Positions 9,901 to 61,967 of a stretch of 64,000 bases of DNA are shown one piece after another. The stretch's first letter is position 1. Each line of letters begins with the position of its first letter. Source of the DNA: Minisyncoccota bacterium (GTDB taxonomy: Bacteria > Patescibacteriota > Minisyncoccia > Phycocordibacterales > UBA9973). The notes under the pieces were generated by a model, which saw only the letters and a program-made list of their open reading frames with translations, ran no database searches and had not been told where the DNA came from. Where the stretch lies: NCBI GenBank assembly GCA_041675045.1, contig JBAYUP010000001.1:24094-88093 (forward strand), read 5' to 3'. The position numbers and the translations under genes are program-made.

Positions 9901-10404
9901 ATGATTATAAAACATAAAGAACAACGCGTGGGGGTTTTTATCGATACATCGAATCTCTACCACAGTGCGAAAAATTTATACAAAAGAAAAGTAAACTTCG
10001 GACAAGTTTTAAAAGATGCTGTCGCTGGACGCAAACTCGTCCGTGCAATCGCCTACGTGATTACATCAGAGGGTGGGGAAGAGAAGAATTTTTTTGATGC
10101 CCTTACGAAACTCGGCATCGAAACAAAAACAAAAGAATTACAAATATTCTCTGGTGGAGCAAAGAAGGGGGACTGGGATGTCGGCATTGCGGTTGATGCT
10201 ATGAAGATGGCTCCAAAACTCGATGCAATTATTCTTGTCGCAGGAGATGGTGATTTTATCCCACTCGTAGAATACCTACAAAACACATCAGGCATCCAAG
10301 TCGAAGTTGTTTCATTCGGTAAATCATCATCAATGAAATTAAAAGAAGCCGCCGATGATTTCCTCGACCTCTCAGCAAGTCCACAGAAATATTTAATGAG
10401 ATAA
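9901..10404 (+). CDS. NYN domain (LabA-like, PIN-related) protein
   Basis: VGVFIDTSNLYHS...LVAGDGDFIPLVEYLQ...GIQVEVVSF is the typical NYN/LabA arrangement. Confidence 0.75.
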   Translation: MIIKHKEQRVGVFIDTSNLYHSAKNLYKRKVNFGQVLKDAVAGRKLVRAIAYVITSEGGEEKNFFDALTKLGIETKTKELQIFSGGAKKGDWDVGIAVDAMKMAPKLDAIILVAGDGDFIPLVEYLQNTSGIQVEVVSFGKSSSMKLKEAADDFLDLSASPQKYLMR

Positions 10405-16629: not shown

Positions 16630-16657
16630 TTGACAAAGTTATAAGATTTACTATAAT
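16630..16657 (+). promoter_or_regulatory. Near-consensus sigma70 promoter TTGACA - 16 nt - TATAAT
   Basis: In the AT-rich divergent region between the TrmB gene and the Cys-rich gene. Confidence 0.55.
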
Positions 16658-41959: not shown

Positions 41960-42370
41960 ATGCAATTCAAAGTTCCACAATTCATAGATATTGAGGACAA
42001 ACTCTTTGGACCATTTACCTTCCGTCAGTTTGCCTATCTGGCAGGTGGCGCTGGGATGATATTTGTTCTCTATAAAGTCCTTCCATTTTGGATTGCTGTT
42101 ATTTTGATAATTCCCGTTGCTGGACTTGCACTTGCACTTACATTTTATAGAATCAACAACAAGCCTTTTATTTATTACTTACAAGCAGGTATTTCCTACG
42201 CTATCGGAGATAAATTATATGTATGGAAACAACGACTTGTAAAACCAACACTCAAAAAAGAAGAGCCCACTCCGACACCAAAAACAAATACCGTACCGAT
42301 GATGTCTGGAAGTAAACTTTCCGACCTTGCATGGAGTTTAGATGTAGAAACGAAAGAAAATAAAGAATAA
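41960..42370 (+). CDS. Small two-transmembrane-helix protein, VirB3/PrgI-like candidate
   Basis: 136 aa, two hydrophobic helices (FAYLAGGAGMIFVLYKVLPFWIAVILIIPVAGLALALTF), immediately upstream of VirB4 as in the conserved VirB3-VirB4 pair. Confidence 0.45.
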   Translation: MQFKVPQFIDIEDKLFGPFTFRQFAYLAGGAGMIFVLYKVLPFWIAVILIIPVAGLALALTFYRINNKPFIYYLQAGISYAIGDKLYVWKQRLVKPTLKKEEPTPTPKTNTVPMMSGSKLSDLAWSLDVETKENKE

Positions 42371-58818: not shown

Positions 58819-58858
58819 GAAAAGCACCGAAGTCACATTTGAATTCAGGTGCTTTTTA
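58819..58858. terminator. Bidirectional terminator (AGCACC...GGTGCT stem with an inner TGAATTCA palindrome), with T-runs on both strands
   Basis: Lies between the convergent 58331..58804(+) and ruvB(-). Confidence 0.6.
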
Positions 58859-59842
58859 TTTTGGGTCAAACCCTAAATGTTCATATCCTTTATTTGTGAC
58901 AGTTCGTCCACGAGGGCCACGTTCTAAGAGTCCAAGTTGAATGAGGTACGGCTCAATAACTTCTTCAATGGTTGCCTCTTCTTCACTTGTGGCAGCCGCG
59001 ATTGTTTTCAGTCCCACTGGCCCGCCATTAAATTTTTCGATGATTACATGGAGCACTCGACGGTCTGATGCAGAAAGTCCAAGTTCGTCTATCTCAAGAA
59101 GTGCGAGAGCTTTTTTTACTGATTCTTTGGTGAGTGGTGTTTTGTGGACCTGTGCGTAATCACGACAACGCTTTAAGAAATAGTTTGCAGTACGTGGAGT
59201 AAAGCGTGCACGAGAAGCAATTTCTTCAAGTGCGTGGTCTTCAATCTCTACGCCAAGAATTTGAGCCGAGCGAGCGAGAATTTTTTTGATTTCATCGTGT
59301 GTATAAAATTCAAGACGAAACACACCCCCAGAGAATCGTGATCGAAGGGGGGAGGAGAGAAGTGCAATTCGTGTTGTTGCTGCGATGAGGGTAAACGGTG
59401 GAAGTTCTAATTGTATTGTACGTGCAGATGGTCCCTTGCCGATAATAATATCGAGCACACCACTCTCCATAGCAGGGTAGAGAACCTCTTCTACCATTTT
59501 ATTAAGACGATGAATCTCGTCGATAAAGACAATATCTCCCGGAGCTAAGTTTGTCAGGATTGAAGCAAGGTCTCCAACTTTTTCGATTGCTGGGCCAGAG
59601 GTTATTTTGATTTGCCGACGAGTTTCGTGGGCGATAAGGTGGGCGAGAGTTGTTTTTCCTAGTCCTGGGGGACCGTAAAATAATATATGTTCAGCAGGGT
59701 GGGCACGTTCTTCTGCTGCCGTGAGGAGGATTTTGAGGTTTGCTTTGATATTTTCCTGTCCAATATATTCATCCCAAATGTTTGGACGCAATGTTTGGTC
59801 GAGGAAGCCCTCGTCTTTGGTTGTAGGTGTGGTACTTGACAT
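58856..59842 (-). CDS. ruvB: Holliday junction branch-migration ATPase RuvB
   Basis: Walker A GPPGLGKTTLA, Walker B FIDEIHRL, sensor motifs, and a winged-helix C-terminus. Confidence 0.95.
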   Translation of the reverse strand: MSSTTPTTKDEGFLDQTLRPNIWDEYIGQENIKANLKILLTAAEERAHPAEHILFYGPPGLGKTTLAHLIAHETRRQIKITSGPAIEKVGDLASILTNLAPGDIVFIDEIHRLNKMVEEVLYPAMESGVLDIIIGKGPSARTIQLELPPFTLIAATTRIALLSSPLRSRFSGGVFRLEFYTHDEIKKILARSAQILGVEIEDHALEEIASRARFTPRTANYFLKRCRDYAQVHKTPLTKESVKKALALLEIDELGLSASDRRVLHVIIEKFNGGPVGLKTIAAATSEEEATIEEVIEPYLIQLGLLERGPRGRTVTNKGYEHLGFDPK

Positions 59843-59864
59843 TATTATTTGTATATGCTATACT
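59836..59864 (+). promoter_or_regulatory. Consensus sigma70 promoter TTGACA - 17 nt - TGcTATACT on the plus strand, overlapping the ruvB start codon divergently
   Basis: Perfect -35, 17-nt spacer and extended -10. Predicted transcription start at about 59871, pointing into an ORF-free region. Confidence 0.55.
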
Positions 59865-59870
59865 TCCTCC

Positions 59871-60246
59871 AGAAATTACATACAGTTCAATTATAGCATC
59901 AAGCGCGAAGAGGACATAAATCTCTAAGCAATCGGCCACGTGCTCTATATGCGTGCGTAGGACGCCCTGGTTTCTATTTATATTTACTGGGACTATCCTG
60001 TAATCGTATATTACTTTAGTTACGCATGTTCCTAAAGGATTGTTTAGAGATTTATGTTCTCTTTTAAAGGAAAGAACGGTCCCATCCCGGTTTGATTTGT
60101 TGTTTTACCGGAATAATTATTTAGCCATAATGACTGTTAGCAAAACTTTCCTTACTTCACCATATTCTGTGTGGGGGTTTGATGAATCGTGAAGAAAAGC
60201 AGAACAGGCCTCGCAACTTCGGTTGCGGGGCTTCTTTATTTTTTAT
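59871..60246 (+). ncRNA. Candidate non-coding RNA (~375 nt) defined by the consensus promoter and a UUCG-tetraloop terminator; class not identified
   Basis: No ORF longer than about 13 codons starts downstream of the promoter. Hairpins inside include CCGGTTTGATTTGTTGTTTTACCGG. An AGGAAAG motif is present, but no convincing RNase P P4, tmRNA tag or SRP domain IV match was found by eye. Confidence 0.4.
60208..60246. terminator. Terminator CCTCGCAAC-UUCG-GTTGCGGGG then CTTCTTTATTTTTT
   Basis: 9-bp stem with one G-U pair, a UUCG tetraloop and a U-rich tail on the plus strand. It could also serve pilB on the minus strand. Confidence 0.7.
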
Positions 60247-60266
60247 AAAAAGAGAGTGAGAAGAGA

Positions 60267-61967
60267 TTACTCCTCATAAAAATCAACCACACTACCGACT
60301 TCGTCGTAGGAGGTGATACCTTTTAGGATTTTGACGATGCCGTCTTCGCGCATGTCGAGGTATCCTTGGTGTGAAGCAATTTCTTTGATTTCTCGTTCAC
60401 TCGGATTGTTAGGAATTATTTTTTCAATATCAGCTGTTTTTATAATTGCTTCGAATACTCCAATTCGTCCTTTGTATCCTGTGTTATTACACTCACCACA
60501 ACCGACAGCCCCATATATTTTTAGGGAAGCATTTGTATCAACTCCATATTTTGAAAAATCTTTATTGTGAGCTATTGCGTTATCAGTTATTTTTTTGATT
60601 ATTTTAATTTGTTCTTCTGTGGCTGGGATTTCTTTTCTACAGTTGAGACAAAGTTTTCGAACAAGACGCTGGGCAATAGAAAGAGAGAGTGCTGATACCA
60701 ATATCTTTGGATTAACATCAAGATCAATCAAGCGCGGGATAACACCTGCTGCGTTGTTTGTGTGAAGTGTCGAGAAAACCAAGTGACCAGTGAGTGCGGA
60801 TTCAACTGCGATTTTTGCTGTTTCGCTATCACGAACTTCTCCCACCATGATCACATCAGGGTCTTGGCGGAGCGATGAACGCAAACCCTCGAGGAATGTA
60901 TACCCCTTCTCACTTTCTGTTTGTGTTTGGGTTATTCCTGGTAAGTGGTATTCAATAGGGTCTTCGATTGTGATTATTTTTATTTCAGGAGAATATATTT
61001 TCTGTAAGAACGAGTAGAGGGTTGTTGTTTTACCACTTCCTGTTGGACCAGTAAGGAGAATCATACCATTCGGCTTTTTAATCTCACGCATAAAAACTTC
61101 AAACAAAGATGGTTCAATACCAAGATCCTCAATCTTTACACGAATTGATTTCGGATTAAGAATACGCATAACGATAGACTCTCCGTATGCACCAGGAATA
61201 AGTGAGACACGCAAACTGATTTCCTCTTCGTCGAGGAATATACTAAAGCGCCCATCTTGAGCAACTGCCGAAGCAGTGATTTTGAGACCTGCTAAAAGTT
61301 TGATTCGAGAATTTAGGAATTTATGAATCGCTGGTGGTATCTCCATGATTTCATGTAGGATTCCATCGAGACGAAATCGTAACCGAACGGTATTTTCTTC
61401 TGGTTCAAAGTGTAGGTCAGAGGCGTTGATAGCAATGGCTCCAGCCAGTGCTATTTCGAGAATATGTGAAGTTGTGTGCGTTGCGTCTTGTTCAGCACGT
61501 TCAATAGCTTTTTTAATATCATCGATATTTTTAATATCCTTCATGATGTCTTTTAATGCAGAGCCAGAGACAGAGATAGCACCTGCTCGTGATTCAGATG
61601 CGTATGAAAGCTCGGTGTAGCGTTCCCATGCTTTCGCCAAGCTCGTGCCCGATGCCATGTAAAAGTGGGGGATGTATCCATGTTCAGTGAAATACTTTTT
61701 TAATTCAACGAGTGTTTCTGCGTGTGGAGCACGTACGGCAATATGTAAATCTTTACCAGTGAGTTTAAATGGTGCAATTCCGAGTGCCTCAGCTTCTTTT
61801 TGGGGGATAGAACGAAGAGCTTCGTTCTCGATAGGGATATTTGCGAGATTTATTGGTTGAACATCATACTTCGCTTCAGCGAGAATTTGCACCAAGTCCT
61901 CCTCTTCTTGTCTTTTGAAGTCATCGAGGTCTTTTTGTTGTTTCTCGTCATTAAAATGAATGGTCAT
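60267..61967 (-). CDS. pilB: GspE/PilB family secretion ATPase (type IV pilus assembly ATPase PilB-like)
   Basis: Walker A LLTGPTGSGKTTTLYS, Asp box, Walker B ..VIMVGEVRD.., His box ..GHLVFSTLHTN.., C-terminal tetracysteine CLNC...CGEC, and an N-terminal GspE_N-like domain. Confidence 0.9.
   Translation of the reverse strand: MTIHFNDEKQQKDLDDFKRQEEEDLVQILAEAKYDVQPINLANIPIENEALRSIPQKEAEALGIAPFKLTGKDLHIAVRAPHAETLVELKKYFTEHGYIPHFYMASGTSLAKAWERYTELSYASESRAGAISVSGSALKDIMKDIKNIDDIKKAIERAEQDATHTTSHILEIALAGAIAINASDLHFEPEENTVRLRFRLDGILHEIMEIPPAIHKFLNSRIKLLAGLKITASAVAQDGRFSIFLDEEEISLRVSLIPGAYGESIVMRILNPKSIRVKIEDLGIEPSLFEVFMREIKKPNGMILLTGPTGSGKTTTLYSFLQKIYSPEIKIITIEDPIEYHLPGITQTQTESEKGYTFLEGLRSSLRQDPDVIMVGEVRDSETAKIAVESALTGHLVFSTLHTNNAAGVIPRLIDLDVNPKILVSALSLSIAQRLVRKLCLNCRKEIPATEEQIKIIKKITDNAIAHNKDFSKYGVDTNASLKIYGAVGCGECNNTGYKGRIGVFEAIIKTADIEKIIPNNPSEREIKEIASHQGYLDMREDGIVKILKGITSYDEVGSVVDFYEE

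Follow-up and report, generated by a model that had tools for sequence, protein, structure and literature searches.

A conserved four-way-junction RNA beside ruvB: a candidate family of stand-alone small RNAs in Paceibacteria

Does the 424-nucleotide (nt) gap between ruvB (58856-59842, minus strand) and a gene for a pilB-type secretion ATPase (60267-61967, minus strand) encode an RNA of its own and, if so, of which kind? The gap lies in a stretch of 64,000 nt (64 kb) of the Minisyncoccota bacterium contig JBAYUP010000001.1, here called the window, whose first letter is position 1 of all coordinates, and an earlier note on this DNA had proposed an orphan noncoding transcription unit on its plus strand. 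That proposal is supported: the gap holds a structured RNA element at 59906-60068 of the plus strand, which no Rfam family matches and which relatives keep between their ruvB and pilB genes, with compensatory changes. The segment is almost certainly a real, independent structured RNA. The whole package proposed here, namely a new stand-alone structured small RNA family of Paceibacteria that acts in trans and is recognised by protein, is on balance probable, and its protein-binding mode in trans, taken by itself, stands about evenly balanced.

The structured core and its conservation

The RNA is framed by an inverted repeat of 26 base pairs (bp) (59908-59933 / 60038-60063), 92% complementary, around 104 nt. 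Its terminal helix, P1, is 26-28 bp long in the family and carries a near-perfect four-way junction with three further helices, P2, P3 and P4, connected by linkers of 0, 2, 2 and 0 nt. Folded alone, the window core adopts the same four helices at -60.5 kcal/mol (z = -7.55, minimum-free-energy fold against shuffles), and it supplies nearly all of the signal of the 376-nt unit in which it lies, for which z is -7.0 on the plus strand and -4.3 on the minus strand. The parts of the core are as follows.

59906-60068, plus strand: conserved 163-nt structured RNA core, scoring 164.5 bits in the window with the covariance model R1
59908-59933, plus strand: 5' strand of P1, pairing over 26 bp with 60038-60063; inner half AAUCUCUAAGCAAUC almost invariant, G59928 invariant
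59934-59944, plus strand: P2, a short hairpin with a variable loop; 3 of 3 pairs covary
59947-60011, plus strand: P3, a long arm; its internal loops and helices (AGGACG..UGG / CUG..C-UAUCCU) are conserved, and the hairpin at its tip varies
60014-60037, plus strand: P4, a hairpin with a variable loop; 8 of 8 pairs covary
60038-60063, plus strand: 3' strand of P1, GAUUGUUUAGAGAUUUAUGUUCUCUU, running into a U-tract at 60062-60065

The structure is backed by covariation in alignments that were not fitted to the model. Two MAFFT alignments of 58-59 homologs, A1 and A2, gave a consensus fold of 51 pairs; in A2, standard pairs fill 95.4% of the cells, against 86.1% after column shuffling and 37-55% when partners are slid, both sides have changed in 32 of the 51 pairs, and none of 500 shuffles attained any of five measures. 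When 98 sequences were aligned to the model, compensatory changes were seen in 41 of the 51 pairs, with 94.2% of the cells paired. Within P1, 19 of the 26 pairs show such changes, chiefly in the outer half.

Near-invariant positions are concentrated in the inner part of P1 (AAUCUCUAAGCAAUC / GAUUGUUUAGAGAUU), in the junction (UUAC, AAGGA) and in the middle of P3 (AGGACG...UGG / CUG...C-UAUCCU), while the three terminal loops all vary in sequence and in length (UUCG, CUUG and others). The invariant G59928, which faces U60043 in the window, is paired with U in 75 of the 98 sequences and with C in the other 23. Mutual information with average product correction (APC) recovered the helices and one extra pair, 59964-59993, which alternates between G:C and A:U, and gave no sign of a pseudoknot or loop-loop contact. 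Sites complementary to inner P1 are not in excess in the window (4 found, 2.95 expected, two of the four being P1 itself). A DNA-level reason for the conservation of inner P1, as the -35 element of ruvB, was rejected, since inner P1 lies about 30 nt from the ruvB -10 box and the order of the promoters differs between subclades. In the most divergent homolog (L081:3596-3769, 47.5 bits), inner P1 has changed from CUCUAAG/CUUAGAG to CUGAAAA/UUUUCAG with pairing kept, suggesting that the family reaches further than sampled.

The strand can be read from the same data. RNAalifold gives -45.6 kcal/mol on the plus strand and -13.1 on the reverse complement, the paired columns contain 424 G·U cells against 39 A·C cells, and R1 scores 71-171 bits in the forward and 20-56 bits in the reverse direction, so that the plus orientation is about 100 bits higher. 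These three results argue for an RNA on the plus strand and against a ruvB leader or a DNA palindrome. The RNA thus appears to be encoded antisense to both neighbours, with ruvB divergent on its 5' side and pilB convergent on its 3' side; no co-oriented gene is seen downstream of it, either in the window or at homolog loci.

Conservation between ruvB and pilB in relatives, which the earlier note had named as a check, is indeed found, with abundant compensatory changes. A blastn search of the gap against 80 GTDB RuvB loci matched about 60 of them, and only over positions 59908-60064 or so. With R1, every one of the 78 GTDB loci that include sequence upstream of ruvB gives exactly one match (47-171 bits), and the 64-kb window likewise has a single copy, without a second. 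To avoid the bias of sampling through RuvB, a 17-base pattern taken from the RNA only was run on metagenome contigs: the RNA is present in 38 of the 120 loci listed as matches, and all of those 38 with enough flank have a divergent ruvB 5' of the RNA and/or a convergent pilB 3' of it. The 120 viral contigs listed for the same pattern, which serve as its negative control, hold no R1 match. E-values come from a shortened calibration and are rough, which affects neither the bit scores nor the viral control.

Linkage to ruvB is seen in 114 of 115 loci, and the RNA is tied more tightly to ruvB than to pilB, as it is kept where pilB is missing or displaced (L032, L036, L049, L072, L153). At the sole exception (L046:6868-7041), an intact RNA lies on the strand of ruvB, 1.9 kb downstream of that gene; a hypothetical membrane protein is encoded divergently beside it, a promoter-like site of its own lies upstream, and this relocation argues for an autonomous gene. 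The RuvB encoded in the window is identical to that on ENA contig ERZ27247358:k141_139993, and its closest GTDB relatives by RuvB are labelled Nomurabacteria, Paceibacterota or Zambryskibacteria; the source organism is Candidatus Nomurabacteria-like and belongs to the class Paceibacteria of the candidate phyla radiation. The family would accordingly span Nomurabacteria, Zambryskibacteria and relatives, and in the loci compared it almost always adjoins ruvB. Several of the homolog contigs originate from Hainich groundwater wells (H41/H43/H52) and Lac Pavin. A RuvB protein search for distant relatives returned only those of at least 86% identity and did not extend the family.

Promoter, leader and 3' end

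The RNA would be transcribed from a strong sigma-70 promoter of its own, which points away from ruvB in the direction of the pilB 3' end. This promoter consists of TTGACA, a 17-nt spacer and an extended -10 (match 11/12), and the spacing predicts a transcription start at about 59871. Around the core, the unit has the following features.

59836-59841, plus strand: -35 hexamer TTGACA of the RNA promoter, overlapping the start codon of ruvB on the opposite strand
59856-59864, plus strand: extended -10, TGcTATACT (TG 59856-57, hexamer 59859-64), kept in close relatives
59871-59905, plus strand: predicted 5' leader, of varying length among homologs
59890-59898, minus strand: putative extended -10 of the ruvB promoter (TGCTATAAT; the plus strand reads ATTATAGCA), kept in about 40 homologs
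60069-60205, plus strand: genome-specific 3' tail of 137 nt, holding a hairpin (60087-60111) and a spurious open reading frame (ORF) with a TTG start
60206-60246, plus strand: intrinsic terminator with a 12-bp stem, a UUCG loop and a T-tail, probably bidirectional and shared with the convergent pilB

The promoter had been described in the earlier note as the best match in the window. The site is present but ranks third, behind two 12/12 sites, although it is the best of those with a TG (extended -10). It carries weight because it is conserved in homologs: sites of at least 11/13 on the RNA strand, scored against TTGACA-17-TGnTATAAT, lie upstream of 54 of 109 distinct homologs (shuffled mean 8.3), and TTGACA-17-TGnTAnnnT recurs 5' of the RNA, with 10 to 71 nt between the -10 and P1. 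Promoter-like sites as a class are not enriched between 55000 and 64000 (20 observed, 22.8 expected). The two 12/12 sigma-70 consensus promoters are found at 16630-16657 (plus strand) and 29495-29467 (minus strand), upstream of a 561-amino-acid (aa) ORF and a 202-aa ORF without Pfam match.

In the window, the RNA promoter and the ruvB -10 face each other (59836-59898), and the predicted 5' ends of the two transcripts would overlap by about 12 nt; an 11-nt inverted repeat at 59855-65 / 59889-99 is merely the two facing -10 boxes. In another subclade (for example L137, L127 and L153), the promoters of the RNA and of ruvB stand back-to-back. One further locus (L009:3789-3960) is without the outer 5' half of P1, its TTGACA...TATACT promoter being joined straight to ...CUCUAAGC, and the model covers positions 15-146 only; this is either a deletion variant or an assembly artefact.

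At the other end, the UUCG terminator claimed earlier is present: a stem-loop at 60206-60233 with 7 G-C pairs in its 12-bp stem is followed by CTTTATTTTT, the T-tail, and is the highest-ranked terminator-like site in the region. It stands about 20 nt past the pilB stop codon (60267, minus strand) and has an A-run before its stem, so that it may also terminate pilB and is not specific evidence for a plus-strand unit. Transcription in this genome would most likely reach it (60206-60246), the U-run after P1 being weak here (CUCUUUU, U-tract 60062-60065). In most relatives, transcription may stop in the U-run closing P1 or at a hairpin that follows shortly: where P1 closes, 66 of 112 homologs have five or more T in a row, and many homologs have a canonical hairpin terminator 5-40 nt past P1. 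In compact loci (L019, L061, L013, L048 and others), only some 8 nt separate the pilB stop from the RNA's 3' terminus and no separate terminator is present, so that pilB read-through there would be fully antisense to the RNA and would run on towards ruvB.

The proposed extent of about 375 nt is plausible as a primary transcript in this genome, but only the 163-nt core at 59906-60068 is conserved and would belong to the RNA family; the leader is variable and the tail is specific to this genome. Among 322 loci compared, none except the same contig shows similarity to the tail 60069-60205, and neither 60069-60266 nor the TTG ORF at 60040-60192 has a homolog in the loci compared. A CCGG...CCGG hairpin that had been quoted as an example of local structure does exist at 60087-60111, but it lies in this tail, outside the family. 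Likewise, the unit had been described as having no ORF above about 13 codons: it holds no ATG ORF, but a TTG-start ORF of 50 aa (60040-60192) is present, GTG ORFs of 30 and 68 aa enter from the left, and none of these is conserved. The minimum-free-energy fold of the full unit shows a 6-bp pairing of leader and tail (about 59897-59904 with about 60178-60186).

Regarding the wider neighbourhood, the replication-origin gene cluster (dnaA, dnaN, rnpA, yidC and jag) lies about 6-10 kb from the RNA gap, and ruvC is near the locus; ruvA was not found among the unannotated window ORFs tested. An ORF of the PrgI/TcpE family (small membrane proteins that form part of type IV secretion or conjugation systems) and an ORF for a NYN-domain ribonuclease are found at 41960-42370 and 9901-10404, and several ORFs neighbouring them are without Pfam match (202, 212, 157 and 290 aa, and an acidic one of 61 aa).

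Comparison with known RNA families

No known family covers the core, as seen in an Rfam/Infernal-type scan of the kind proposed in the earlier note. None of the 4227 models of Rfam 15 matched it, whether in the window at gathering score, in 59700-60400 at E ≤10 or in 8 divergent homologs at E ≤5, and the hits in those scans are terminator look-alikes only (for example His_leader and trpB), none of them over the core. To the extent that these models can detect them, 6S RNA, RNase P RNA, tmRNA, SRP RNA and Y RNA are thereby excluded. ARAGORN finds four tRNAs in the window and no tRNA or tmRNA in the region.

The size had been thought to fit RNase P RNA, tmRNA or a large signal recognition particle (SRP) RNA; this part of the proposal did not hold, as a core of about 160 nt is too small and the tests for these families, and likewise for 6S RNA, were negative. 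RNase P RNA of type A or B is rejected by the absence of an Rfam match, by the length of the core (163 nt, against about 270 nt or more) and by the absence from the mutual information of a long-range pseudoknot such as P4, with its CR-I and CR-V sequences, would give; tmRNA, which has a tRNA-like domain and a tag reading frame, by ARAGORN, by Rfam and by a size of about 160 nt; and SRP RNA, whether 4.5S or large, by Rfam and by the variation of all three terminal loops, where domain IV would have a conserved GNRA cap. A repeat or miniature transposable element is rejected by the single model match in the 64-kb window and the single match per locus. A riboswitch or cis-regulatory leader is rejected too, as pilB is convergent, ruvB is divergent and the G·U bias excludes the ruvB strand. 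Some short resemblances were put down to chance: an 8-mer of the hairpin ribozyme, UAUAUUAC, of which half the positions form a covarying stem and which is not conserved across homologs, and a Cas9 repeat-like stretch, GUUUAGAG, and the SRP Alu motif UGUAAU, which either are not conserved across homologs or have the wrong topology.

Among known RNAs, 6S RNA (SsrS; RF00013, RF01685) is the closest in overall dimensions and lifestyle. Both are about 160-200 nt long, with a terminal helix formed by both ends and an apical arm beyond a central region, and both have a strong constitutive promoter, one copy per genome and an expected action through protein rather than base pairing. On the other hand, there is no match here to RF00013 or RF01685 (gathering score in the window, E ≤10 on 59700-60400, E ≤5 on 8 homologs), and the centre is a tight, covarying four-way junction, not an open bubble: hairpins that covary occupy both sides (P2 in 3 of 3 and P4 in 8 of 8 pairs), with linkers of 0/2/2/0 nt. 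In 6S RNAs the central bubble is largely unstructured, with an open 5' side that templates the product RNA, and the arms are imperfect (PMC8876501). For a 6S RNA, about 150-200 nt with a closing and an apical stem would be expected; with its 163 nt, the core has P1 and P3 as two long arms, yet P1 is perfectly paired and conserved in sequence, unlike the arms of 6S RNA, which are imperfect and poorly conserved in sequence.

The Y RNAs (bound by Ro60/Rsr; bacterial Yrn1/YrlA) share with this RNA a long end helix with a highly conserved segment, a 3' U-tail and internal modules that are more variable. In Y RNAs, protein binds at the conserved helix. Here, no Rfam 15 model, whichever Y RNA families that release includes, matches at gathering score or at E ≤10, there is no tRNA-like module, the neighbours are ruvB and pilB and not rsr, and the RNA is larger than typical Y RNAs; on these grounds a Y RNA was rejected. 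The raiA motif RNA is comparable in being multi-stemmed and covarying, in having a promoter and a terminator of its own within a conserved neighbourhood, and in lacking an established biochemical function (PMC10861870), while its sequence and structure are unrelated; it belongs to Firmicutes and Actinobacteria and not to the candidate phyla radiation, and the RNA described here is smaller and has no detected pseudoknot. Finally, four-way-junction RNAs such as the SAM-I and Mn2+ riboswitch aptamers and the natural hairpin ribozyme also join four helices through very short linkers and have an arm whose internal loops are conserved, but those act in cis or cleave themselves, whereas the RNA described here has no gene downstream, matches no model and gives no evidence of cleavage. 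A full-text literature search found no such RNA described for Patescibacteria, Parcubacteria or Nomurabacteria.

How the RNA may act and what it would mean

The family has conserved promoter and terminator signals and a structure backed by compensatory substitutions, which are the generic marks of a stand-alone small-RNA gene. The explanation favoured here is that the RNA acts in trans as a stable, protein-recognised molecule, either a ribonucleoprotein scaffold or a decoy, and that it would act neither by base pairing of its loops nor as a cis-regulator. Recognition by protein is suggested because conservation lies in the helices, the junction and the internal loops while the three terminal loops vary freely, and because no gene that it could regulate lies downstream; its strong promoter and long terminal helix, typical of stable housekeeping RNAs, support the idea of a stable RNA.

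Several points weigh against this explanation. The transcript, its ends and its abundance are predictions from the DNA, and the protein-binding mode is argued by elimination. An almost perfect 26-bp duplex is normally a substrate of RNase III, and the mature form may differ from the core as drawn. A strong -35/-10 pair lies within 100 nt in only about half of the homologs. Moreover, the distribution was sampled within the clade of at least about 70% RuvB identity, and a local role that the favoured explanation misses could lie behind the near-absolute linkage to ruvB.

Among the alternatives, it is unlikely that this is the 6S RNA of the lineage or its functional analogue, which would bind the sigma-70 holoenzyme as a mimic of an open promoter. 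P1 would then correspond to the downstream closing stem and P3 to the apical arm, and P2 and P4 would be hairpins within the central bubble. Such a role would suit a length of about 160 nt, two long arms flanking a centre, a strong promoter of housekeeping type and the presence of one copy per genome throughout the clade. Free Bacillus 6S-1 RNA has a hairpin in the 3' part of its central bubble (PMC8876501). Additionally, the conserved inner 5' strand of P1, with G·U wobbles opposite, would suit the template of a product RNA that outcompetes the 3' strand. What speaks against it is that no 6S or 6S-Flavo match appeared at E ≤10 on the 700 nt around the core or in the 8 homologs, and that covarying hairpins on both sides of the centre, linkers of 0-2 nt and a perfect P1 replace the open bubble of known 6S RNAs (PMC8876501).

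A local role is unlikely, too. The RNA would then be a convergent antisense unit whose effect is to shield ruvB against read-through from pilB or to regulate either gene, through transcriptional interference or through duplexes with read-through mRNA. This is in keeping with the location of the RNA, which in 114 of 115 loci is flanked by pilB and ruvB and antisense to each of them, with the compact loci, where read-through past a pilB stop about 8 nt from the RNA 3' end would be fully complementary, and with the face-to-face promoters of the RNA and ruvB in the window's subclade. Nevertheless, a local role needs neither a four-way junction with 41 covarying pairs nor G·U pairs on the RNA's own strand; the geometry of the promoters differs by subclade, being face-to-face in one and back-to-back in another; strong terminators separate the RNA from pilB in many loci; and in L046 the RNA remains intact although it has been relocated.

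Aptamers that are built on a four-way junction and have conserved internal loops are common, for example SAM-I, the Mn2+ riboswitch and NiCo. A riboswitch-like ligand sensor, in which such an aptamer would control its own termination and thus antisense transcription into pilB, finds some support in this frequency, in the U-run directly after P1 and in the convergent pilB downstream; it is improbable in view of a 26-bp P1 that is far too stable to depend on a ligand, the lack of a conserved alternative anti-terminator pairing and of a co-oriented downstream gene, and the absence of any Rfam riboswitch match. No greater probability is given to a Holliday-junction mimic or another Ruv-linked RNA, a decoy or cofactor that would bind or titrate RuvA, RuvB, RuvC or a nucleoid protein. 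The almost perfect four-way junction (linkers 0/2/2/0 nt), the linkage to ruvB, tighter than that to pilB, and the nearby ruvC would fit it, while it is speculative, four-way junctions are common in RNAs, the A-form arms of RNA differ from B-DNA and these small genomes conserve gene order in general. It is hardly credible that the locus encodes no RNA and is instead a palindrome or cruciform in the DNA, a miniature transposable element or an operator for a protein, for although a 26-bp inverted repeat of 92% complementarity is present and both strands fold better than shuffles, the differences between the arms are G·U on one strand only (424 against 39), the three internal hairpins covary independently, and the model matches once in the 64-kb window and once at each locus, with the reverse strand scoring about 100 bits lower.

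The stand-alone, protein-recognised RNA favoured here would be new at the level of the RNA family, with no relative in Rfam 15, while its general kind, the stand-alone structured small RNA, is familiar. A large part of bacterial diversity belongs to the candidate phyla radiation, and the full-text literature search found no structured RNA described as specific to these bacteria. The family would offer a lineage-wide, single-copy and, as predicted, highly expressed RNA, with a covariance model ready for use and more than 100 examples. If the RNA proves to be a 6S analogue, it would bring control of the 6S type, in a new architecture, to the candidate phyla radiation. Should the tie to ruvB be functional, the RNA would represent a new kind of RNA involvement in recombination, and a Holliday-junction mimic in particular would explain both the shape of the junction and the linkage to ruvB, as an RNA imitating a DNA repair intermediate in the manner in which 6S RNA imitates an open promoter. 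If it is a housekeeping ribonucleoprotein RNA, it would add a part to the minimal cell biology of these reduced epibionts.

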